A stretch of DNA of 57,699 bases from a virus (taxonomy: Duplodnaviria; Caudoviricetes): positions 1 to 57,699 of the IMG/VR virus record IMGVR_UViG_3300047547_000110, one strand, 5' to 3'. The notes beneath the pieces are model-generated. The model was given only the letters and a program-made list of their open reading frames with translations, was not told the origin of the DNA and searched no databases. Position 1 is the stretch's first letter. Each line of letters begins with the position of its first letter. The translations under genes were made by a program, and so were the position numbers. Positions 2,206 through 57,699 of this stretch are shown here, one piece after another.

Positions 2206-2457
2206 ATGCAATACGAGACAAAGACCCGCAGTATGGGCCGGCTGGGCTACGTCGCCATGTTCGTGGCAGTAGCCATGCTCACCTTGTTGGTGCTACACCA
2301 ATTCATCGTGCTGCTGGATCGTCCTGAAGTCCATGTCTCGTACAGCACTGGTCAGTGCGTCGAGGTAGTGGACCATAAGGCCAAGCACGAAGGCAAGCGG
2401 TCAGAATGGTCCTGCGACAAGCTGCCTGAGACCTACGAACGCATCTGGGTGTATTGA
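2206..2457 (+). CDS. Small membrane protein
   Basis: AAGGAG RBS; N-terminal hydrophobic helix, two Cys. Confidence 0.7.
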   Translation: MQYETKTRSMGRLGYVAMFVAVAMLTLLVLHQFIVLLDRPEVHVSYSTGQCVEVVDHKAKHEGKRSEWSCDKLPETYERIWVY

Positions 2458-2526
2458 CGGCTCGACCGGCAAGGCCAGTGTGTCATGATGCCTTCTCGGG
2501 GATGGTCCCCACGGAGGCATTTTATT

Positions 2527-2709
2527 ATGTACGATCAGGAAGGGGATGAGGATGGTTTGGGCTGCGCTCGCGGCCTTATGGTGGCGGTTCCTGTGGGGAT
2601 TTTGATGTGGATCGCGATCATCGGTGCTGTGATGCTGATCCGGGGCTGCCACGACGAGCCTGTGGCGCAATTCAGGTCAGCTCCGGCAGTCGAGGTGCAT
2701 GTCACCTAG
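2527..2709 (+). CDS. Small membrane protein
   Basis: GGAGG RBS, ATG at 2527, one TM helix; promoter-like GGCTCGAC-N17-CATGAT at 2459-2489. Confidence 0.6.
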   Translation: MYDQEGDEDGLGCARGLMVAVPVGILMWIAIIGAVMLIRGCHDEPVAQFRSAPAVEVHVT

Positions 2710-2761
2710 GCGCTGAGCCGGGCTACTCGGCCCGAGAGCTAAAACATAGACCTGAAGTAAG

Positions 2762-2787
2762 AAAAAGACACCGCCAGGCGGCGGTGT
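2762..2787 (-). terminator. Terminator ending the late (lysis) transcript at the convergence point
   Basis: ACACCGCC-GCCT-GGCGGTGT then CTTTTT on the minus strand. Confidence 0.75.
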
Positions 2788-2845
2788 TAAAGGCTCAGGC
2801 GGGCGTGAAGGAGAGGAACCCAACCGCCTGAGGCCGCGGGGCTTG

Positions 2846-3244
2846 TCACTTGCCTACGAACTCCTTGATGCCAACCCAAAGGGCGGCAAGCATACCGCTG
2901 ACGAGAATGCCCATGACGGTGAGCAGGCCTTTCGACTTGATGCTCTCGGTCGTGTTGCGCCACTCGCGGAGGTGCTGGAAGTCCTTTTGAACTTCAATGG
3001 GATCATCGACTTTCACCCCGAGCATGAGGAACGTCTCACGGACGGCCTCACGGATCAAGGCACGAGCCTCTTCGGGGGTCAGGTTCTGGAGCTGCTGCTC
3101 GGGGCCAGGTCGGTTGTTTTCACTCACTTCGTTCCCTCCCGGGCAGAATGGTAGTTCAGGGCTATCGCTGCGCCGGCGTCCAAAGACGGCTTCAGCAACG
3201 GCAGCCCGCACTGGGTTGCATTGTGTTCTCCGATCATCATTCAC
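2846..3244 (-). CDS. Membrane protein downstream of the spanins
   Basis: C-terminal TM helix; last gene of the lysis operon; start uncertain. Confidence 0.7.
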   Translation of the reverse strand: MNDDRRTQCNPVRAAVAEAVFGRRRSDSPELPFCPGGNEVSENNRPGPEQQLQNLTPEEARALIREAVRETFLMLGVKVDDPIEVQKDFQHLREWRNTTESIKSKGLLTVMGILVSGMLAALWVGIKEFVGK

Positions 3245-3621
3245 TTCCCGCCCTTCCCGTCGCCTTCAGGCACGGGCTGCTGCCGTGTCCGGCGGTAGAA
3301 GTCGAGCTGATAGCTGGCTTCACGAGCCCAGCGTACCATCTCAGACATGTTGCGAGAAAGTGCCTCGTATCCGCGGGCAGGCAAGGCGAACAACGCCTCG
3401 CCCTCGACTTCAACGACCTGCCAGCGGACCGTCTCGAGCTTAACCGGCTCAGGAGCCGGGAGCACGGGCAGCGGGGGCTGCTTGGTCTCCGTTGGAGGTT
3501 GGAGCTTGGGTGGAGTGCTCGAGCAGGCGGATAACCCGATCAGAGCCATCGTTAACCCGGCGCTCAATAAGACCCGGCTTACGCTTGGCGAGCGCGCCGA
3601 GGTCATGCTTGGATAGGACAT
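3241..3621 (-). CDS. o-spanin (Rz1-like lipoprotein)
   Basis: Lipobox LSAC followed by Pro-rich segment; overlaps the i-spanin in another frame. Confidence 0.8.
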   Translation of the reverse strand: MSYPSMTSARSPSVSRVLLSAGLTMALIGLSACSSTPPKLQPPTETKQPPLPVLPAPEPVKLETVRWQVVEVEGEALFALPARGYEALSRNMSEMVRWAREASYQLDFYRRTRQQPVPEGDGKGGK

Positions 3622-30544: not shown

Positions 30545-31504
30545 TCAATCGAAGGCGTCGTCCCATGTACCTTCGATGGCCCCCTTCGAGTAGTCCGTCG
30601 CCCGATTCTCGAAGAAGTTAGTATGCTCCTTCCCGAAGACGATCACATCGACCCAAGGCAGAGGGTTGGTGGCCACGCCAAAGAGAGGCCGCTCGCCAAG
30701 CTGGCCGAGACGCTGGTCAGCCACATAGCGGATATATCCCTTAACCTCCTCGGCCGTCATGCCTGAGTTGCCGCCACCGTCATACGCCAGGTCGATGAAG
30801 GCGAACTCGAGCTCCACCATCCGCTGAGCCACCTCACGAATACGCTCGGAGTGCTCTGCGGTCCGGATGTGGGGGTGTTCGGCCAGCAGCTGGTGATACA
30901 CCCTCACCATGCACTCGACGTGATGGGTCTCGTCACGGATGGACCAGCTGACGATCTGCCCCATACCCACCATCTTGCCAAAGCGGGTGAAGTTGAGCAG
31001 CATGACGAAGCTGGAGAAGAGCTGCAGCCCCTCTCCGAAGGCCGAGAAGACCGCGATGTCAAGCGCCAGACCTTCCAGCCCCTCGCGCTGCTGGAACAGG
31101 TACTCATGCTTGTCCACCATCTCGCTGTATCCCATGAAGGCGGAGTACTCCACCTCAGGGATACCCAGCTCGTCGATCAGCATCGAGTAGGCCTGGATGT
31201 GCACGCCCTCGCGGGCGGCAATCGAGGCCATCATCATGCGCAACTCGACCGGCTTGAAGGTCGGCATGTAGCGCTCGATGTACCCAGAGGCTACATCGAC
31301 GTCAGCCTGGGTGAAGAAGCGGAAGATGTGGGTCAGCAGGGACTTCTCCTCTGCTGTCAGCACAGTCTTCCAGGTCTTGATGTCCTCCGTCAGAGGCACC
31401 TCACGAGCGAGCCAGTGCATTTGCTCACTCGCTACAAAGGCCTCATAGGCCCATGGATACCAGAACGGCTTATATGCCGCCCGTTTGTCAAAGATACTCG
31501 CCAT
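30545..31504 (-). CDS. nrdB: Ribonucleotide reductase class Ia beta subunit
   Basis: Metal ligands D, E..H, E, DE..H and radical Tyr (EGVHIQAY); NFFE tail. Confidence 0.93.
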   Translation of the reverse strand: MASIFDKRAAYKPFWYPWAYEAFVASEQMHWLAREVPLTEDIKTWKTVLTAEEKSLLTHIFRFFTQADVDVASGYIERYMPTFKPVELRMMMASIAAREGVHIQAYSMLIDELGIPEVEYSAFMGYSEMVDKHEYLFQQREGLEGLALDIAVFSAFGEGLQLFSSFVMLLNFTRFGKMVGMGQIVSWSIRDETHHVECMVRVYHQLLAEHPHIRTAEHSERIREVAQRMVELEFAFIDLAYDGGGNSGMTAEEVKGYIRYVADQRLGQLGERPLFGVATNPLPWVDVIVFGKEHTNFFENRATDYSKGAIEGTWDDAFD

Positions 31505-31507
31505 AGT

Positions 31508-33322
31508 TTACCCCTCGCAGCTCGTGCAACCTTCACCAAGAGTGCATACTGCACCAGACGGGGCCGCGTCGTCCGCCTTCGTCTCTACGGGAGCAGGCTC
31601 ACGCAGGATGTCAGGCATCACACCGACCGACGTCGCCTTGACAGACGAGGAGCGGAGGTAGTAGAGGGACTTCAGGCCGAGCTCCCATGCACGGAAGTGG
31701 GTCTGATGGAGCGTCTTGGTCGAGACGTTGGCAGGCAGGAAGAGGTTGAGGCTCTGCGCCTGGCAGATGAACGGCTGGCGATCAGCAGCCAGTTCGAGCA
31801 TCACGTTCGGATCGACCTCCGAAGCAGTCTCGAAGACAGCCTTATCGTGCGCCGAAAGGAAGTCCAGGTGCTGTACAGAGCCGCGTTCGAGCACGATCGA
31901 GCGCCAGACCTCCGGGTCATCGCGGCCGAGTTCTGCAAGCCTGACCTGCAGTGCCGGATTGCGCACTTCATGAGAGCCTGCCATGGTCTTCTGCACGAAG
32001 GCATTGCTGACCAGGGGCTCCGTGCTCGGGCTGACCCCGCCGCAGATGATCGAAGAGGTGGCGTTCGGAGCGATCGCGATCAGGTGAGCATGACGCAGGC
32101 CTGTTCCCTTCATGTCCTCAGCTTCACCGCGCTCAACCGCGAGACGCATGGACGCCAGACGAGCCTCGCTGCGGATCGCATGGTAGAGCTGAGCGTTGAA
32201 CTCGGCAACGTGGGAGGAACCAAGTGCCCAGCCTTGCAGCTGGCAGTAGGTATGGAAGCCAAGGGTGCCGAGACCAATGGAGCGCTCCGACACGACCGAC
32301 TTGACAGCCCGCCACATCTCGTCAGGGGCGCGCTGGCAGAACACCTCGAGCGCATTGTCCAGCATGGTCACCAGGTCATCGATAAACTGGGTCCGATTCG
32401 GCCACCAGTCGTCGAGCTTTGCCACGTTGATGCTGGAGAGGCAGCAGACAGCGGTGCGGTCGGGAGCGGTCGGGAGGGTTATCTCAGTGCAGAGGTTCGA
32501 GTGGTGCACGCGGAGGCCCTTATCCTTGAGAGGCTGCGGCAGGCTGCGGTTGGCAGCGTCCACGAAGAAGAGGTAGGGTTCACCGAGGCGAGCACGTTGC
32601 TGGAGCATCTGAACCCACAGGCCGCGGGCTTGGACCGTCTCGCGGACGTTGCCGGAGTGAGGGTCAACCAGGTCCCATGGTTGGTCATCGCGCACAGCCT
32701 GCATGAAGGCATCACTGATGCAGACCCCGTGATGGAGGTTCTCGTTCTTGCGGTGAACGTCTCCACCCGTGGCCGAACGCATGTTGATGAACTCGACAAT
32801 CTCGGGATGGGACACATCGAGGTAGGTCGCATGAGCACCGCGACGAGTGGAGCCTTGGTGGTAGGCGATGGCCTGCGAGTCCTGGACGTGCATGAAGGAC
32901 ATGACGCCCGGCGTGTCCACGCCCTTGCTGGTGACTTCACCAACAGAGCGCACGTCACCCCAGTAGGTGCCGATGCCGCCGCCATTAGTCGAGAGGAAAG
33001 CGTTCTCCACGAAGTTCTCAGCCAAGCCGCGCACAGAGTCATCGACGTGGTTGAGGAAGCAGCTGATAGGCAGACCGCGGGTCGTGCCGCCATTCGCCAG
33101 CAGCGGAGTGGCGAACATGAACCATTGATTGGAGGAGTAGTTGTACAGTCGCTGCGCCAGGGCATCGTCGCCCCCGCTGAACGCCTTTGCCGCCCGGGCC
33201 AAGGCCTGCTGACCGGTCTCGCCGGGCAAGCAGAACTGTTTCTTGAGGGTCGTTACCGCGAAGGCACTCATGGCCTCATCGCGGGTGGGGTCGATGTCGA
33301 TCCCGGTCGCAGCATCTATCAT
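31508..33322 (-). CDS. nrdA: Ribonucleotide reductase class I alpha subunit (no ATP cone)
   Basis: ATP...N.G, ISCF, GGGIG, GEPY, SNLCTEI, APNATSS, KSLYYLRS, C-terminal CTSC. Confidence 0.93.
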   Translation of the reverse strand: MIDAATGIDIDPTRDEAMSAFAVTTLKKQFCLPGETGQQALARAAKAFSGGDDALAQRLYNYSSNQWFMFATPLLANGGTTRGLPISCFLNHVDDSVRGLAENFVENAFLSTNGGGIGTYWGDVRSVGEVTSKGVDTPGVMSFMHVQDSQAIAYHQGSTRRGAHATYLDVSHPEIVEFINMRSATGGDVHRKNENLHHGVCISDAFMQAVRDDQPWDLVDPHSGNVRETVQARGLWVQMLQQRARLGEPYLFFVDAANRSLPQPLKDKGLRVHHSNLCTEITLPTAPDRTAVCCLSSINVAKLDDWWPNRTQFIDDLVTMLDNALEVFCQRAPDEMWRAVKSVVSERSIGLGTLGFHTYCQLQGWALGSSHVAEFNAQLYHAIRSEARLASMRLAVERGEAEDMKGTGLRHAHLIAIAPNATSSIICGGVSPSTEPLVSNAFVQKTMAGSHEVRNPALQVRLAELGRDDPEVWRSIVLERGSVQHLDFLSAHDKAVFETASEVDPNVMLELAADRQPFICQAQSLNLFLPANVSTKTLHQTHFRAWELGLKSLYYLRSSSVKATSVGVMPDILREPAPVETKADDAAPSGAVCTLGEGCTSCEG

Positions 33323-43128: not shown

Positions 43129-43806
43129 ATGGAACAACCCAAGATGAGTGACCTGCAGTCCAAGCTGGCTGGCGATGCACAGCCTTCTTCGGCAGCCGAA
43201 GAACTGCGCCAAGCCATGCAGGACATGCTGGAGCAAGACAACCACCTGGTCAAGGGCCTTGCAGCACAGTCCAAGAAGCAGCTGGCCCGCGAAGTCGTCC
43301 ACCTGCGCGCCATGATTAAGGTGGTCCAGAATGCCACCCGCAATGTGCGCATCGACGGCCACCGGTTCGGCCACGCGGAAGCCTTTATGCTGATGACCTA
43401 CAAAGAGGTCGACGGCGAGGGCTCTATCCTGGTGTGGAACTCACGCGATGGCGTCACGCCGTTCGTCATCAACATCGGGTCGAAAAAGTACCAGCACGAC
43501 ATTCCGCGCCAGCAGGGCCCGTTCTTCGACCTGCCGCGTGAGCATTCGGTCTCCCATGTGTGGGTGACTCGCACCGATGCCCAGGTGCTCGAGGCGTGGC
43601 GTCGCACGATGGACCGCGCTGTCGAGCTGGGCAAGATCGATCCCGAGAAAGCCGCAGGCATGCGTGACAACCTGGAAGTCGCCGAGTCCTGGCACTACCG
43701 TATCGGCCTCCGTAACCTGGAGACCGGGCGCTTCACCGACGAAGAGGTCCTCGAGGCCGCTCACGCCACCAACCCCAACCAACCGGAGCTCTTTCCCAAT
43801 GACTGA
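43129..43806 (+). CDS. Hypothetical protein
   Basis: AAGGAG RBS; HAEAF.LM.Y...WNSRDGVTPF. Confidence 0.75.
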   Translation: MEQPKMSDLQSKLAGDAQPSSAAEELRQAMQDMLEQDNHLVKGLAAQSKKQLAREVVHLRAMIKVVQNATRNVRIDGHRFGHAEAFMLMTYKEVDGEGSILVWNSRDGVTPFVINIGSKKYQHDIPRQQGPFFDLPREHSVSHVWVTRTDAQVLEAWRRTMDRAVELGKIDPEKAAGMRDNLEVAESWHYRIGLRNLETGRFTDEEVLEAAHATNPNQPELFPND

Positions 43807-44377
43807 ACAACGCATCCCGGCGCGTGTGCTTCGCACCGTGCCTTATGACCAGATGGTCCGCAACCTCTTCAAGCCGATGGGCAGCAAAGAGGCCTCCTTC
43901 CTGCACGCCGCCATCGGCATCTCGGGTGAGTGCGGCGAGCTGCTTGTCGCCTCGTCCATCGAGAACATCGTCGAAGAGCTGGGCGACATCGAGTTCTACG
44001 TCGAGGCAGGGTACCAGGTCCTCGGCGGCCGTCGTACCCCTCTCGCTGATAGCCTCGAGGTGGCCGGTTCTGACCCTTGCATGCACCAGGTGCTGGGCAC
44101 GGTGACCATCGCCTTGTCATCCACGTCGGCGCGCTTACTCGACCTGGCCAAGAAGGGCTGGGTCTACAACAAGCCCATGGATGAGAACGTCGAGCGCGCC
44201 TTGCGCTATGAGCTCATGCGCATCGAGCTCATGATGGAGCAGCTGCGTGAGATGATCGGCGTGCGTCGTCCCGACGTCCTGGGCGCCAACCAGGGCAAGC
44301 TTGGCAAGCGCTATCCCGAGGGCGTCTACACCGACCAAGCCGCGCAGACTCGGGCTGACAAGCCTGACGGCGAGTGA
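43799..44377 (+). CDS. MazG-like nucleotide pyrophosphohydrolase
   Basis: LHAAIGISGECGEL, EELGDIEFY, N..KL..RYP.G. Confidence 0.8.
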   Translation: MTEQRIPARVLRTVPYDQMVRNLFKPMGSKEASFLHAAIGISGECGELLVASSIENIVEELGDIEFYVEAGYQVLGGRRTPLADSLEVAGSDPCMHQVLGTVTIALSSTSARLLDLAKKGWVYNKPMDENVERALRYELMRIELMMEQLREMIGVRRPDVLGANQGKLGKRYPEGVYTDQAAQTRADKPDGE

Positions 44378-44670
44378 CTACCAAGGTCATCAACCGCCGC
44401 AGTGGGGCGTCCTACGACTTGATGGTCGATAGGACGTCTTTCTGGGGCAACCCTTTCCATATTGGAGTTGACGGCACTCGTCGTGAGGTGATTGCCAAGT
44501 ACCGCGCGATGGTGTTGTCGCGACCTGATATGGTGGCCAGATTGCCGGAGCTGCGCGGCAAGACATTGGGCTGCTGGTGTAAGCCGAAACCCTGTCATGC
44601 CGACGTTCTTGCAGAGCTGGCAGATTCTGAGCTGTTTGACGGCTCGCTCTCAGGGATCAACCTGAGATAA
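44374..44670 (+). CDS. DUF4326-family protein
   Basis: WGNPF, LRGKTLGCWCKPKPCHADVL. Confidence 0.85.
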   Translation: MTTKVINRRSGASYDLMVDRTSFWGNPFHIGVDGTRREVIAKYRAMVLSRPDMVARLPELRGKTLGCWCKPKPCHADVLAELADSELFDGSLSGINLR

Positions 44671-52645: not shown

Positions 52646-53122
52646 ATGACCGAAGACGTGAAGAATGAAGCTGCTGAAACCAAGGAACCCAAAGCTCCTG
52701 GCGTGGGCGATGTGGCCAAGGGCCTGATCCGCGATGGCAAGACCAACGAGGAAGTCCTGGCAGCCATCAAGGAGCAGTTCCCGGATGCCAAGACCTCCAT
52801 GGCCAGCATCAACTGGTACCGCAACAAGCTGCGTGGCGACGGCGAGAACGTGCCGACTGCCCGCGAGCTGAAGGCGGACGCCAAGGCCGAGACCAAGGCT
52901 GCGAAGGAAGCCGAAAAGGCTGAGAAGAAGGCAGCCAAGGACGCCGAGAAGGCGGAAGCCAAGGCGAAGAAGGACGCCGAGAAGGCCGAGAAGAAGGCTG
53001 CTGCTGACAAGGCCAAGGCCGATGCCAAGGCTGCGAAGGAAGCTGCCAAGGCTGCCAAGGCCGAAGGCGGTGAAGCCGCTGGCGGCGAGGGCGATGGCAA
53101 GGGCCAGGACTTCCTGGAGTAA
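52646..53122 (+). CDS. Histone-like protein: HTH-like domain plus Lys/Ala/Glu-rich tail
   Basis: AAGGAG RBS; GKTNEEVLAAIKEQFPDAKTS...WYRNKLR; KAEKKAAK repeats. Confidence 0.8.
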   Translation: MTEDVKNEAAETKEPKAPGVGDVAKGLIRDGKTNEEVLAAIKEQFPDAKTSMASINWYRNKLRGDGENVPTARELKADAKAETKAAKEAEKAEKKAAKDAEKAEAKAKKDAEKAEKKAAADKAKADAKAAKEAAKAAKAEGGEAAGGEGDGKGQDFLE

Positions 53123-53169
53123 TCCAAGGGAAGTGATGGTTCGCGGGGCTTAGCCCCAAGCCTAAGATA

Positions 53170-53203
53170 AGGGGACGTGCTGCAGAGTACGTCCCCTTTC
53201 TTC
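53170..53203 (+). terminator. Terminator-like hairpin
   Basis: AGGGGACGT...ACGTCCCCT TTCTTC. Confidence 0.65.
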
Positions 53204-53220: not shown

Positions 53221-54222
53221 ATGATTCGACTTGCTCGCCTCTACTTTGTGCGTGGAGACATGCCCAGCCATACCCGTACTCGATTCGAGATTAAAGACCC
53301 ACCCTGCTCAGGCTATGGCCACGTAGCCATCATCCCGGGTGAGAAACGATCGACCCTGCTAAGCCCCTTCTCGCTGCAAGCTTGGCAGGTCAGCAATTCA
53401 TGCGATGAGATGCGTAGCGCTGAGTATGTGGAATGCTCACCCGAAAAGCTTGCCGGGTTCATCTATAAGGCTTGGGATGAGTGCATAAAGCTAGGGTTCC
53501 AGCGAGACTTTGGCGTCGCCGCAATGGTGCTGACCGAGCTCGGCCAGCCGGTGCCCAAGTATATACCGCCTCCGGTGGATGAATCCAAGAAGGACGAGTC
53601 CAAGCGAGGAGGCAAGCCCATCAATGAAGAGGCGCTGCGGCCGTGCAAGCCGACCAGCAAGCGCGGTGAAGTGGCTGCGTTCTTCATGCAGGACGATCCT
53701 CAGTCCCTACACGAGGCCATGGCTCGTCTCAGTCTCACCCGGTCGGGTGTGCTGTCTCACCTGTTCACTCTCAACAAGGACCACGGCGTCGGCTATGAGC
53801 TGGTCAGCGACTGTGCCCGCCTTTTGGTGCCTGAAGGTTTTGACTTGTTCGCTTGGGTAGAACCCGAGCGGGCTCCCAAAGCCGAGAAGCCTGTGCGCAC
53901 CAACGAGGACGGCACGGTCTACGAGCCCAAGAAAAGGACAAGCGGCAAGGCCGTCATTCCCGAGGCGCTCAAGCCGATCCCTGAGCCAGGCAAGCGCGCG
54001 GTGGTGGCTCGGTTCTTCGTTGATGGCTTCCACGACGTCGCCGAGGTCTGCACCAAGCTTGACTTGGACCGTTCGGCTGTGTTGTCTCACCTATTCACGA
54101 TCAACAAGGAGAATGGCCTAGGCTACGAACTGAGCGAGGATGGCAAGTGCGCTCGCTTGATCGTGCCTGAGGGGCATGTCGTCTTTGGCCCCAAGATTCC
54201 GCGAGCTAAGAAGGGTGAATGA
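53221..54222 (+). CDS. Protein with two tandem winged-HTH-like repeats
   Basis: Internal duplication RS.VLSHLFT.NK..G.GYEL...CARL.VPEG. Confidence 0.8.
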   Translation: MIRLARLYFVRGDMPSHTRTRFEIKDPPCSGYGHVAIIPGEKRSTLLSPFSLQAWQVSNSCDEMRSAEYVECSPEKLAGFIYKAWDECIKLGFQRDFGVAAMVLTELGQPVPKYIPPPVDESKKDESKRGGKPINEEALRPCKPTSKRGEVAAFFMQDDPQSLHEAMARLSLTRSGVLSHLFTLNKDHGVGYELVSDCARLLVPEGFDLFAWVEPERAPKAEKPVRTNEDGTVYEPKKRTSGKAVIPEALKPIPEPGKRAVVARFFVDGFHDVAEVCTKLDLDRSAVLSHLFTINKENGLGYELSEDGKCARLIVPEGHVVFGPKIPRAKKGE

Positions 54223-54529: not shown

Positions 54530-55318
54530 ATGACTGAAGACCTGAACCAACAACCCCGCGAAGCTTTTGCGGCTGCCATCGCTGCGCGCATGCTTGTCAA
54601 AGTGGCAGACTTCAACCGTGAGGTTGTCGCCCTGCCGATTCCTGAGACTCCACAAGTCATCGGTCCTGAGCGTCAGAACTGGGCCAATGCCGCCCTGCAA
54701 GAAGAGCTCACCGAATTCAACGAAGCGATCGATGCAGGCGATGTGCTGGAAGCAGCCGATGCCCTTATCGACCTCGTGTACTTCGCCCTCGGTCGTCTCG
54801 TTGAGATGGGCGTGCCGGCGATTGCTGTGATGGATGAAGTCCAGCGCGCCAACATGGACAAGGAGCAAGGCGAGCTGTCCAAGCGTCCCGGCTCCATGGG
54901 CCACGATGCTATCAAGCCTGCGGGCTGGCAAGCGCCGGACCATGCGTGGCTGCTCGGCTTCAGCCTGTCGGATGTTCGCGAGCTGGCCAAGCTCCGCGCT
55001 GAAGCGGCTGAGCGTGAAGCGATGAGCCCCGTGTGGCTCGAGCTGCAGGCACTGCGTGAAGCCAAGGGCAAGGACTACAACGACGTGCCGGGTGGACGCG
55101 ATGCCTACTTCCCCTATGGGCACTTCTCCTATGCCCACATGCTGCAGACCAAGAACCTGCGCATCCAATCTCTGCTGGCTGCCTTGCAGAAGGGCCGCGA
55201 GGTGAACTTCGAGGGCTTGTACGATACCGTCAAGGACCTTGTCAACTACGGCACCTATTACGCCGAAGCCATGCGCGACGGCCGTCTGTCTCAGACATCC
55301 ATCGGGGGTGAAGCATGA
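54530..55318 (+). CDS. MazG/dUTPase-like pyrophosphohydrolase fused to a DUF1599/Nmad1-like helical domain
   Basis: EEL.EF..A, DALIDLVYF..G, V..ANM.K, KP.GW..P; C-terminal K..DY...K..R...DT..DL.NY. Confidence 0.75.
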   Translation: MTEDLNQQPREAFAAAIAARMLVKVADFNREVVALPIPETPQVIGPERQNWANAALQEELTEFNEAIDAGDVLEAADALIDLVYFALGRLVEMGVPAIAVMDEVQRANMDKEQGELSKRPGSMGHDAIKPAGWQAPDHAWLLGFSLSDVRELAKLRAEAAEREAMSPVWLELQALREAKGKDYNDVPGGRDAYFPYGHFSYAHMLQTKNLRIQSLLAALQKGREVNFEGLYDTVKDLVNYGTYYAEAMRDGRLSQTSIGGEA

Positions 55319-56178
55319 TCCCATTCTTCGACGCCTATGGAGCTATCGTCGCCTGGGTATATGGTGGCGATGTGGAGCTCAACGAACGGACCGGAGTGCG
55401 GGTCAAGGTAGGTCGTGGCGGTACGGCATTCCGTGTGGACCTCAGGGATGGCTTGCTGCCTACGATTGGCTTCCGCAAGACCTTTCCGAAGTCGGCGGCT
55501 GCCGAAGTCGCCTGGTATCTGCTCGGGACTCAGGATGCTGCCTTCATCCGCAAGTACGCTCCGCTGTGGGACAAGTTCGTCGAGCCCATCGAGCAGAAGA
55601 CGGACGAATGGCCATACATCCGCAAGACTGAAGGTGTCAAGGCCGCCTACGGATACCGCTGGCGCAACCACTTCGGCCGGGACCAGATTCGTCTTGCCGT
55701 CGAAGCCCTGAAGAAGGACCCGAGCGATCGCCGGTGCTTCATCTCGGCATGGGACCCTGCCACTGACGGGCTTGGTGAGGTCGGCCAGCGCAACGTTCCG
55801 TGCCCGGCAGTCTTCACCTTCAGCGTGCTTGGCGGGGAGTTGCACTCTTCCATCGTCTTGCGCAGCTCTGACATCTTCGTCGGGCTGCCTTACGATGTGA
55901 TGGGCCACGCGTTGCTCATGGATGCTATGGCTCACGAGCTGCGTCTCCGCCCGGGTGTCATGCACGTCACACTGGCCCATGCACATCTCTACGAGTCCCA
56001 TTGGGAACTCACCGCTGAGATGCTGAAGCAGGAGCCTGTTGTACCTGAGCTCCAGCTTCCGGGCTGGACCCTGTCTCAGATTGAGCGGGCCCCTGACGAC
56101 TACGTGGTCCGCTACGCTGAGGAGGCGAAGCAGCTGGCGTGGCCTACCTTCAACCCGCGGCCTGAAGTGGTGGAATGA
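55315..56178 (+). CDS. Thymidylate-synthase-fold protein, probable dCMP methyltransferase
   Basis: RTG, E..W, YG.RWR, RR..SAW, catalytic PC, RS.D...GLPYD, H.Y. Confidence 0.85.
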   Translation: MIPFFDAYGAIVAWVYGGDVELNERTGVRVKVGRGGTAFRVDLRDGLLPTIGFRKTFPKSAAAEVAWYLLGTQDAAFIRKYAPLWDKFVEPIEQKTDEWPYIRKTEGVKAAYGYRWRNHFGRDQIRLAVEALKKDPSDRRCFISAWDPATDGLGEVGQRNVPCPAVFTFSVLGGELHSSIVLRSSDIFVGLPYDVMGHALLMDAMAHELRLRPGVMHVTLAHAHLYESHWELTAEMLKQEPVVPELQLPGWTLSQIERAPDDYVVRYAEEAKQLAWPTFNPRPEVVE

Positions 56179-56639
56179 TGAACGAGCAGCCTATCAAGCG
56201 GACGCAGGAGGAGTGGGATAACTTCTTCCTGCGGTTCGCCCGCGACATCGCGAGCATGTCCAAGGACCCTGATCGCCAAGTCGGCGCGGTCGTGGTCACG
56301 CCTGATCGGCGGCAACTGTCTCTCGGCTACAACGGCTTCCCGCCGGGAGTCGAGGACCTGCCGTCACTCCTGGCCGACCGCGACTTCAAGCTGGCGAACA
56401 TGGTGCATGCTGAGGTCAACTGCCTCAGGCAGGCTCCTTTCGAGTTGGTGGGCTGCTCGATGTATGTCACCCGCTTCCCTTGCCACCACTGTGCTGAGAA
56501 GATCGTGGCAGCCCGTATCCATCGCGTGGTTGCTCCTGCCCCTGACTTCGGCCATGCGCGGTGGGGACAATCCTGGCGTCAATCAGCGGAGTCTCTAGAG
56601 TCCGCTGGTATCGCCATCACCCTCTACAAAGGAGAATAG
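56175..56639 (+). CDS. dCMP deaminase
   Basis: SKDP..QVGA, GYNGFP, HAE, PC..C. Confidence 0.92.
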   Translation: MMNEQPIKRTQEEWDNFFLRFARDIASMSKDPDRQVGAVVVTPDRRQLSLGYNGFPPGVEDLPSLLADRDFKLANMVHAEVNCLRQAPFELVGCSMYVTRFPCHHCAEKIVAARIHRVVAPAPDFGHARWGQSWRQSAESLESAGIAITLYKGE

Positions 56640-56640
56640 T

Positions 56641-57108
56641 ATGAGACTGCTGCTAGCCAGCTCGGCTGACGGGTATCTAGCCCGTGGCCCTGAAGATGGC
56701 ATGAAGTGGACGGGCCCCATCGACAAAGCGGTGTTCCGTCTGCTCACCCTGTCCAACGGGAATGATGTGCTGCTTGCCGGCTCCCGCACCTTCGATCAGA
56801 TGCCCAAGCTGCCTGGTCGGCGGATGGAGCGCCTGTCGCGTGGCCCGAATGGCCTAACCCTGGCGGATGCTGCCGCTCGATGGCCTGACGCCTGGCTGAT
56901 CGGCGGACCTGAGGTCTCGGTCGAGGCCTTGCGCCTGGGTCTTGTCACACGGGCATTCATTTGCATCTCGCAGGCCGAGTTGCGCGAGGGCATCCATGCT
57001 CAGGAGCTCTCAGCTTTGCTGCCGCATGAAGACTCAGCCTACACCATCAAGGTGGGAGACGTCCAGGTCAAGGTCTTCACGGAGGGCCAGAAGTGGCCCG
57101 TGAAGTAA
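56641..57108 (+). CDS. Dihydrofolate reductase-like protein
   Basis: W...D...F..LT, G.RT, LPGR, IGG motifs. Confidence 0.8.
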   Translation: MRLLLASSADGYLARGPEDGMKWTGPIDKAVFRLLTLSNGNDVLLAGSRTFDQMPKLPGRRMERLSRGPNGLTLADAAARWPDAWLIGGPEVSVEALRLGLVTRAFICISQAELREGIHAQELSALLPHEDSAYTIKVGDVQVKVFTEGQKWPVK

Positions 57109-57527
57109 GGCTATGGGAATGGCTGCGCGATGGACTGCGCGGCACCGAAGGCCTACACATGCGGCGGGTGGAGAACCTTGTGAGCGAAGGCGATCCAGAC
57201 GTTGACGGGTGTTGGCAAGGCCGGTATTTTGAGCTCGAGCTCAAGGGATGTGACCGGCCGGCGAAAGACGGGTCTCTGAGCTTTGACGTCCGCCAGTCGC
57301 AAGTCATCTGGCATCGCAGGCGCTGGAAGTGCGGCGGCAACATCTGGCTCTATATAAGAGTGGGTAAGGGGCGGGAGGTTCGGCGGTACCTGGTACCTGG
57401 AAACCTGACCGGGCGTGTGCAGGAAGGAGTGACTGAGGCCGAGCTAGCTCGCATGTCTATCCTCCCGCCTGGTCATACGGCTGCCGAGCTCCTAGCTCAA
57501 GCGGTAGACACTTCCAGCCTTAGATAG
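57093..57527 (+). CDS. VRR-NUC / Holliday-junction-resolvase-like nuclease
   Basis: G.PD...ELELK...Q..W PD-(D/E)XK pattern. Confidence 0.8.
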   Translation: MAREVRLWEWLRDGLRGTEGLHMRRVENLVSEGDPDVDGCWQGRYFELELKGCDRPAKDGSLSFDVRQSQVIWHRRRWKCGGNIWLYIRVGKGREVRRYLVPGNLTGRVQEGVTEAELARMSILPPGHTAAELLAQAVDTSSLR

Positions 57528-57699
57528 CTGGAAGCTATAAGGGCCCTTCGGGGCCCTTTTTCTATTGCCCTAAAAAAAAAGTTGCTGGAGGGGGCTCCCA
57601 ACGGTCGAAAACCCCCTTATAATCATCCCATACCAACCAAACATTGGAGAATAAACATGACGACCATCGCCAACACCATCCGCGCCGCCCTCGCTGCCG
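57517..57699. repeat. Terminal direct repeat / circular assembly overlap, right copy
   Basis: Matches 1-182. Confidence 0.95.

Follow-up and report, generated by a model that had tools for sequence, protein, structure and literature searches.

Results

The genes of the cassette

The window analysed here is the whole of the virus record IMGVR_UViG_3300047547_000110, 57,699 bases long and estimated to be 94% complete, and within it we consider a cassette of four plus-strand open reading frames (ORFs) at positions 54530-57108 that resembles the 5-methylcytosine (5mC) genes of phage Xp12. The phage behind this record is referred to below as the source phage. In order, the ORFs encode a pyrophosphatase-like fusion with a MazG-like domain, a homologue of thymidylate synthase (TS), a member of the deoxycytidine monophosphate (dCMP) deaminase family and a probable, divergent dihydrofolate reductase, DHFR (Table 1). 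Their start and stop ends overlap or abut and the genes are translationally coupled, the TS and deaminase genes sharing 4 nucleotides (nt) and the deaminase and DHFR genes being separated by 1 nt. All four families had been named in an earlier note on this DNA, made from the sequence alone, and comparisons with Pfam, PHROGs and the sequences of the PDB lead to the same assignments.

Table 1. Features of the cassette and of its surroundings in the window (aa, amino acids)
Feature	Position	Strand	Evidence
Two-domain all-alpha pyrophosphatase-like protein, 262 aa	54530..55318	+	PRA-PH (PF01503) 2.5e-16, aa 31-108; phrog_18404 1.5e-150
TS-fold protein, 287 aa, predicted Xp12-type deoxycytidylate 5-methyltransferase (5-methyl-dCMP synthase)	55315..56178	+	PF00303 Thymidylat_synt 8e-42
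Active-site stretch N160-V-P-C163-P164, AAC GTT CCG TGC CCG	55792..55806	+	Cys codon TGC 55801-55803
Asp194 (GAT), ThyA Asn177 position (pyrimidine-specificity residue)	55894..55896	+	DNA read and alignments
dCMP-deaminase-family protein, 154 aa, predicted 5-methyl-dC-nucleotide deaminase	56175..56639	+	PF00383 dCMP_cyt_deam_1 3.5e-21
Probable divergent dihydrofolate reductase, 155 aa	56641..57108	+	phrog_13578 'dihydrofolate reductase' 8.9e-74
Conserved last cassette gene, 144 aa	57093..57527	+	phrog_2165 3.7e-42, labelled 'DNA helicase'
Terminator-like hairpin closing the transcription unit	57539..57558	+	Consensus scan
Upstream terminator-like hairpin	53169-53198		Consensus scan
Class Ia ribonucleotide reductase, small and large subunits	30545..33322	-	Pfam Ribonuc_red_sm 1.6e-65, Ribonuc_red_lgC 1.2e-108

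Specificity residues of the TS homologue

The earlier note had claimed that the TS homologue carries Asp194 in place of the Asn177 of ThyA, and that it keeps the catalytic Cys163 while the PCH motif around it has become PCP. A reading of the DNA bears this out, since CGC AGC TCT GAC ATC TTC GTC GGG CTG CCT TAC GAT encodes RSSDIFVGLPYD, ending in Asp194. So do alignments to solved thymidylate synthases, to Xp12, and to Escherichia coli ThyA and T4 gp42 as taken from genome records, which equate Cys163 with ThyA C146, Pro164 with H147, Asp194 with N177 and Asn160 with L143. The equivalents of E58, W80, Y94, R166, S167, D169, H207 and Y209 are all retained, and T4 gp42 has Asp in both the N177 and the L143 column. 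Overall, identity to the homologue in Pseudomonas phage PaMx74 is 87% and to the Xp12 one 74% (with 100% coverage by tblastn), as against 30% to E. coli ThyA and 18% to T4 gp42.

A phmmer search of 1.84 billion cluster representatives returned 11,152 proteins at E <= 0.001, and residues were counted in the best 150 of these, each standing for a cluster at 50% identity. Asp occupies the N177 column in 142 of them, Asn in two and Glu in one, with a gap in five; Pro stands at the H147 position in 120, Asn at L143 in 121 and Cys at C146 in 145, and the full N-C-P-D-D pattern is found in 98. Xp12 and PaMx74 have the same signature, N-x-P-C-P...D, which by these sequence counts marks a large clade. 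Furthermore, the Asp194 codon shows no differences in contigs from the DNA run of another sample (55458-56428) and from an RNA-library run (55819-56069). As such, the Asp is neither a chance substitution nor an assembly slip, since it is present in 142 of the 150 representatives and identical in independent contigs. All eight thymidylate-synthase equivalog models of NCBIfam score the protein under their cut-offs (e.g. 110 versus 327 bits, and 97.6 versus 108.35).

Published work bears directly on these positions. Positions 177 and 147 are reported to separate best the TS homologues of modified-cytosine phage contigs from those of unmodified ones, and N177D is cited in the same paper as switching specificity to dCMP (PMC8670742). 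Expression of the Xp12 TS homologue together with T4 gp1 in E. coli is reported to yield 5-methyldeoxycytidine (5mdC) in DNA, as did five of seven metagenomic TS homologues (bioRxiv 10.1101/2024.12.05.627091). We therefore predict from homology that the TS homologue of the source phage produces 5-methyl-dCMP, with its folate cofactor oxidised to dihydrofolate. The record contains no other TS-fold gene and no ThyX, and thymine must therefore come through this enzyme or from the host.

The loop of the TS homologue at aa 93-108 (55591-55636) varies greatly in length from one relative to another, and PaMx74 has a longer insert there. One single RNA-library contig, of 90% likeness, skips 44 nt in this loop; this probably reflects an indel in a related phage and not splicing.

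A predicted deaminase for 5-methyl-dC nucleotides

The deaminase carries the zinc motifs HAE (H78-A-E80) and PCxxC (P102-C103-x-x-C106), is 86% identical to its counterpart in PaMx74 and 66% to that of Xp12, and among PDB sequences matches human dCMP deaminase best (2w4l, 9.5e-19), followed by the PBCV-1 deaminase (7fh4, 7.9e-16). It is a PF00383 deaminase encoded in cis with a TS homologue of the Asp177 type, an arrangement for which a recent preprint gives counts: a dCMP-deaminase gene lies at most 3 kb from the TS gene in 104 of 149 modified-cytosine contigs versus 17 of 277 unmodified ones (bioRxiv 10.1101/2024.12.05.627091). The same preprint, the only literature that our search found on this protein, characterises the deaminase mSCD-B5. 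Like the deaminase of the cassette, mSCD-B5 is a single-domain PF00383 protein of 154 aa that is encoded beside an Asp177-type TS homologue; its neighbourhood is compared by its authors with those of Xp12 and PaMx74, and its nearest solved structure, PBCV-1 7FH4, is the second-best PDB sequence match here. The likeness is one of description, and it is on this basis that we transfer its substrate preference to the source-phage deaminase.

According to the preprint, mSCD-B5 deaminated 99% of the triphosphate 5-methyl-dCTP (5mdCTP) versus 4% of dCTP in 30 min, and 65% of the 5-hydroxymethyl form (5hmdCTP) in the same time, and was inactive on dCMP and 5mdCMP. The product of 5-methyl-dCTP is dTTP, and its authors propose that this conversion removes the need for a thymidylate synthase acting on deoxyuridine monophosphate (dUMP). 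They describe 5mC-selective activity as 'sporadically distributed' in the deaminase family (bioRxiv 10.1101/2024.12.05.627091). Moreover, an older paper names an XP-12-induced '5-methyl-dCTP deaminase' in its title. Because mSCD-B5 acts on 5-methyl-dCTP, and in view of this older title, the thymine branch probably lies at the level of the triphosphate, and not at 5-methyl-dCMP where the earlier note had placed it. The deaminase of the source phage is thus predicted, by analogy, to prefer 5-methyl-dC nucleotides.

A probable, divergent DHFR

The DHFR protein is 85% identical to that of PaMx74 and 62% to that of Xp12, and it matches the DHFR chains of Mycobacterium tuberculosis in the PDB at 3.2e-6 over aa 3-129, nearly its full length. 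Its match to DfrA of NCBIfam (0.0013) is far under the cut-off. The homologue in phage AXL1, which is about 91% identical to that of Xp12, is reported to be functional and insensitive to trimethoprim, raising the minimum inhibitory concentration of the drug for E. coli from <1 to >256 ug/mL (PMC9206674). From this relationship we predict DHFR activity for the source-phage protein as well.

A two-domain pyrophosphatase-like protein

The first cassette protein consists of an N-terminal MazG/PRA-PH-like domain (about aa 1-140) and a C-terminal domain (about aa 145-262; nt 54962-55315). The nearest solved relative of the former is DR2231 of Deinococcus (PDB sequence match 6.4e-9), and a structural model of the protein with a confidence score (pLDDT) of 85.2 places DR2231 in all top rows of a Foldseek search (E 1.4e-5, 136 columns). 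All 40 aligned homologues share residues E58, E59, E62, E74 and D77 without exception, and these conserved acidic residues presumably bind metal; the structure titles of DR2231 include the mutants E46A, E47A and E79A. As DR2231 has been crystallised with dUMPNPP and with dUMP, either dUTP or dCTP is a plausible substrate, and the MazG-like protein is most likely, by analogy, a dCTP/dUTP pyrophosphatase candidate. PRA-PH is reported to be among the five commonest domains beside deaminases of the mSCD-B5 kind (bioRxiv 10.1101/2024.12.05.627091). A search for homologues returned 278 at E <= 1e-5; the 120 that were listed measure 230-326 aa, and the two-domain form is therefore conserved.

The C-terminal domain is modelled as a four-helix unit (pLDDT 88). 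It has a weak match to DUF1599 (PF07659, 'nucleotide modification associated domain 1'; E 0.17, 12.7 bits versus a cut-off of 25), and DUF1599 is matched in three of 40 pyrophosphatase homologues, at best with E 0.0028. An Atlas feature search scores it 0.90 to DUF1599-bearing viral clusters, with 190 of 256 features in common. For this domain Foldseek returned no PDB entry at E <= 0.001, and the top VIA-align chains are MazG, PRA-PH, YpjD and RS21-C6 at Z 6.3-7.2, a range that is insecure for helical bundles. As a lead only, the domain could be a second, divergent all-alpha pyrophosphatase-like domain, 'MazG/DUF1599-like'. Our literature search on DUF1599 found nothing on function by title or abstract.

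A second MazG-like ORF lies at 43577-44377 on the plus strand (phrog_229 1.5e-22, aa 74-265). Its first ~70 codons look non-coding and its true start is probably later; the protein has no match in Pfam or among PDB sequences, and directly after it, at 44374-44670 (+), follows a DUF4326 protein (4.7e-26). With this ORF, there are two candidates in the genome for the removal of dCTP or dUTP.

The phosphorylation of 5-methyl-dCMP

No family of deoxynucleoside monophosphate (dNMP) kinases was recognised among 65 ORFs compared with Pfam or 42 compared with PHROGs, by which a kinase is not excluded. Walker-A scans picked out the primase/helicase, terminase and SNF2 helicase, all other matches being low-complexity or unlikely frames, and no small ORF had a credible motif. 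The profiles Thymidylate_kin, Cytidylate_kin and AAA_18 had no matches in the source genome, Xp12 or PaMx74, while all 14 control genomes were positive, and a search with T4 gp1, run without a positive control, likewise found nothing in any of the three. The earlier note had taken the lack of a dNMP kinase as fitting a route to thymine in place of DNA modification. The observation itself stands, and the argument built on it does not: since Xp12 and PaMx74 are equally devoid of a recognisable dNMP kinase, this absence does not discriminate between the two.

A 5-methyl-dCMP kinase activity induced by XP-12 was reportedly described in 1982; if that is right, the gene for this kinase was never assigned. 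The DUF1599-like domain is the sole conserved piece inside the cassette that is unassigned. Since 5-methyl-dCMP has to become a triphosphate, it is conceivable, and in our estimate unlikely, that the cassette family encodes an unrecognised type of 5-methyl-dCMP kinase, and that this domain is either that kinase or a module that discriminates dCTP from 5-methyl-dCTP.

Synteny and the borders of the transcription unit

The gene order, with an SNF2 helicase further upstream and then pyrophosphatase, TS homologue, deaminase, DHFR and a small nuclease-like gene, is the same in Xp12, PaMx74 and Roseobacter phage RDJL Phi 1. Rhodobacter phage RcRudolph keeps this order apart from an additional small gene behind DHFR. 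The cassette of Achromobacter phage JWX lacks DHFR, and two genes make up its pyrophosphatase region. The genes before TS in JWX (2355-3360) encode a 172-aa 'hydrolase' and a 161-aa hypothetical protein, which may correspond to the two pyrophosphatase domains; if so, the wider clade can dispense with both the fusion and DHFR. The TS homologues of RDJL Phi 1, RcRudolph and JWX all carry N[VI]PCP together with RSSDxFVGLPYD.

The annotations of these relatives hide the system. Their MazG-like protein is misannotated as 'HAD superfamily hydrolase', 'Cof hydrolase' or 'haloacid dehalogenase', and their TS homologue is labelled 'thymidylate synthase' or, in Rhodobacter phages, 'ThyX-like thymidylate synthase'. 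This agrees with the expectation of the earlier note that routine annotation would call the gene thyA.

The last gene of the cassette occupies the same position in Xp12, PaMx74, RDJL Phi 1 and JWX, and in RcRudolph it was matched by position to the second gene after DHFR, which is annotated 'nuclease'. Its 144-aa product has no match in Pfam, NCBIfam or the PDB sequences. A D-x(10)-E-L-K motif, read by eye and typical of PD-(D/E)xK nucleases, suggests that it is such a nuclease, and as far as can be told it stands outside the nucleotide pathway. Several GenBank records, like PHROGs, call it 'DNA helicase'. The two terminator-like hairpins are only plausible as operon borders, as the promoter/terminator consensus scan returned five sites versus 3.9 expected in shuffles. 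The first gene of the transcription unit is at 53221-54222 (+) and encodes 333 aa (phrog_11422) with an internal duplication, …RSGVLSHLFTLNKDHGVGYEL… / …RSAVLSHLFTINKENGLGYEL…; it has weak helix-turn-helix matches, and its product may be a DNA-binding protein.

The source phage and its relatives

The source genome is that of a near-complete, uncultured siphophage of the Bradleyvirinae, with PaMx74 (JQ067093; Cinvestavvirus, Bradleyvirinae) as its nearest sequenced relative. Scans with Pfam and PHROGs found a siphophage gene set of terminase, portal, capsid, tail tube and tape measure, and the genes of replication type include the class Ia ribonucleotide reductase, a prim-pol, a family-A DNA polymerase, the SNF2 helicase, a ligase and a Cas4-like nuclease. 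To PaMx74, nucleotide identity is about 83% across 69% of the cassette and 47% of the 24.9-kb replication block, and by this low identity and coverage the source phage looks like at least a separate species. The next-closest relatives are AAT-1, phiH1/H2, PaMx28, Donnerlittchen, DoCa5, Xoo-sp2 and Xp12, which according to record taxonomy lines and a table in PMC11946847 are members of the Bradleyvirinae within the Mesyanzhinovviridae.

Near-identical DNA of 54530-57527 (0.91-1.00 of sampled words) is present in 14 metagenomic runs, sampled from freshwater, sediment, bioreactors, microbial fuel cells and wastewater. In total 20 entries across 10 studies hold this DNA, two of which may be the source sample, and the phage or its close kin is widespread across engineered and natural waters. 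It should be noted that pieces of RNA-library contigs are no proof of transcription, as DNA may be present, that uncovered bins carry no meaning, and that the listed runs, whose library descriptions name no bisulfite or similar conversion, cannot reveal modification.

Elsewhere in the window, the proteins encoded at 65-895, 1031-1603 and 52646-53122 (all +) share an N-terminal segment (…GKTN..VLA.[IV]K…) and have PHROGs in common that are of unknown function (17767, 17205, 38698, 34102, 16873, 21513 and 37268, which they cross-match), and they look like a small paralogous family. The third of these has a tail rich in Lys, Ala and Glu, and its counterpart in Xp12 is labelled 'TolA protein'.

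Discussion

In this study, we examined a four-gene cassette at 54530-57108 that is very probably an Xp12-type 5mC cassette, through which the source phage would both place 5mC in its DNA and obtain thymine from 5-methyl-dC nucleotides. A TS homologue specific for dCMP that makes 5-methyl-dCMP, with DHFR recycling the dihydrofolate, is what the earlier note had proposed, and both the homology to Xp12 and the synteny of the cassette support it. However, that note presented a 5mC genome and a route to thymine as alternatives, whereas for Xp12-type phages both are described together (bioRxiv 10.1101/2024.12.05.627091), and in the source phage the two probably run side by side as well. The system has already been described for the closest relatives, and the source phage adds one more case. 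Xp12 and PaMx74 are stated to 'replace C entirely with 5mC' (bioRxiv 10.1101/2024.12.05.627091), the DNA of AXL1 resists 26 of 31 restriction enzymes, and that of DLP4, PaMx28 and PaMx74 is also reported to resist enzymes with G/C-containing sites (PMC9206674). It is by homology to these systems that we infer both the 5mC content of the source-phage DNA and every enzymatic step that follows.

In the pathway that we propose, the phage reductase and host enzymes would supply deoxycytidine nucleotides. The MazG-like enzyme would hydrolyse dCTP and/or dUTP to the monophosphates, which would exclude C and U from the DNA and provide the methylase with dCMP, much like T4 gp56. Such removal of dCTP, which the earlier note had likewise suggested, remains conditional; that dCTP (or dUTP) would be removed while 5-methyl-dCTP is spared follows from the logic of the pathway and from analogy to gp56. 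On a dCTPase of Xp12, the passages returned by our literature search contain nothing. The TS homologue would then use Cys163 and 5,10-methylene-tetrahydrofolate to methylate dCMP, with Asp194 selecting the cytosine ring, and would release 5-methyl-dCMP and dihydrofolate, the latter to be reduced to tetrahydrofolate by the adjacent DHFR. Host kinases or an unrecognised phage enzyme would raise 5-methyl-dCMP to 5-methyl-dCTP, which the family-A DNA polymerase would incorporate instead of dCTP. Part of the 5-methyl-dC nucleotide pool would be converted by the deaminase to thymine nucleotides, probably from 5-methyl-dCTP to dTTP, and a dUMP-dependent thymidylate synthase would therefore not be needed.

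Several points weigh against this reading. Both the product of the TS homologue and the base composition of the DNA are transferred wholly by homology, and two of the seven TS homologues from such cassettes gave no 5mdCMP, while the full replacement in PaMx74 is a bare statement of the preprint (bioRxiv 10.1101/2024.12.05.627091). At the L143 position ThyA has a hydrophobic residue and T4-type enzymes an acidic one, and Asn160 is neither. Pfam gives no match for the DHFR protein and, as the cassette of JWX is without one, the clade does not strictly need a DHFR. The nearest solved relative of the MazG-like domain, DR2231, binds a dUTP analogue and not dCTP. Finally, a kinase for 5-methyl-dCMP is not recognisable in the genome, and the record being 94% complete, a gene could be missing from it.

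Could the 5-methyl-dC nucleotides then be mere intermediates on the way to thymine, in a phage whose DNA keeps ordinary or partly substituted cytosine? This alternative survives best, and we consider it very improbable. It would account for the tight coupling of the deaminase and TS genes, and for a genome with neither a recognisable dNMP kinase nor a proven dCTPase. However, the deaminase characterised from such a cassette needs 5-methyl-dCTP, which is itself a substrate for incorporation (bioRxiv 10.1101/2024.12.05.627091), and Xp12 is fully replaced with the same gene set, also without a recognisable kinase. The restriction resistance reported for AXL1, and for DLP4, PaMx28 and PaMx74 (PMC9206674), points away from ordinary cytosine as well.

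That the TS homologue is a dCMP hydroxymethylase, and the DNA one with 5-hydroxymethylcytosine (5hmC) as in the T-even phages, is less probable again. T4 gp42 has the same Asp at N177, the polar Asn at the L143 position might admit water, and mSCD-B5 deaminates 5hmdCTP too, if less completely than 5-methyl-dCTP (bioRxiv 10.1101/2024.12.05.627091). The L143 position is said to track whether the product is methyl or hydroxymethyl and is acidic (Asp/Glu) in T4-type enzymes (PMC13326640). With Asn160 this rule is silent, and the methyl assignment therefore leans on Xp12, where this Asn is also found. A hydroxymethylase, which unlike a methylase forms no dihydrofolate, would also leave a translationally coupled DHFR beside the only TS-fold enzyme of the genome. 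Furthermore, scans with Pfam, over the 65 ORFs, and with PHROGs found no glucosyltransferase, glycosyltransferase or other transferase that decorates 5hmC. As such, we favour a methyl over a hydroxymethyl product because of the 74% identity to the Xp12 methylase, the residue at L143 included, as against 18% to gp42, because of the coupled DHFR, and because of this lack of a decorating transferase. The least probable explanation is an ordinary thymidylate synthase that converts dUMP to dTMP with a tolerated Asn-to-Asp change, in a standard module of deaminase, TS and DHFR: the PF00303 match, the retained equivalents of Glu58, Tyr94, Arg166, Ser167, Asp169, His207 and Tyr209 and the GenBank annotation of relatives as thymidylate synthase speak for it, and against it stand the replacement of both Asn177 and His147 clade-wide (in 142 and 120 of the best 150 representatives), scores under every ThyA equivalog cut-off, the switch of specificity by N177D (cited in PMC8670742) and the 5mdC made by the Xp12 homologue (bioRxiv 10.1101/2024.12.05.627091).

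With the Xp12-type reading, an uncultured and environmentally widespread phage joins the group predicted to replace cytosine with 5mC. Under labels such as 'thymidylate synthase', 'HAD/Cof hydrolase' and 'ThyX-like', modified DNA of this kind is invisible to routine annotation, and the hidden modification matters for restriction, sequencing and cloning behaviour, as well as for the choice of phages for applied use. The potential for discovery lies only in the kinase, the substrate of the pyrophosphatase and the DUF1599-like domain.

Of the known systems, Xp12 (MT664984; Bosavirus, from a Xanthomonas host) is closely similar: all four genes recur there, arranged and oriented alike, and the same small gene comes next; its records read 'hydrolase (HAD superfamily)' (QNN97215), TS (QNN97214), dCMP deaminase (QNN97213) and DHFR-like (QNN97212). 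It shares with the source phage the N-x-P-C-P...D signature, and neither has a recognisable dNMP kinase. Unlike the source phage, which is uncultured and known from sequence alone, Xp12 carries one gene more, placed between its small upstream ORF and its pyrophosphatase, and at this position a protein with an ENDO3c domain is reported for both AXL1 and Xp12 (PMC9206674). In PaMx74 the counterpart genes are PaMx74_53 to _50, and there about 400 nt separate the deaminase and DHFR genes versus 1 nt in the source phage, besides the longer variable loop at aa 93-108 of its TS homologue. The T4 system of gp42 and gp56 is alike in concept, in that cytosine is replaced before replication by a TS-fold enzyme with Asp at N177 that acts on dCMP, together with a nucleoside triphosphate pyrophosphatase. 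It differs in the low identity of gp42, in Asp versus Asn at L143 and in a hydroxymethyl versus a methyl product, and T4 has its own dNMP kinase, gp1, which has no relative in the source genome, as well as a separate dUMP thymidylate synthase. Lastly, E. coli ThyA shares with the TS homologue the fold, the catalytic Cys and the residues that bind phosphate and folate, whereas at 30% identity its N177, H147 and L143 have given way to Asp, Pro and Asn.

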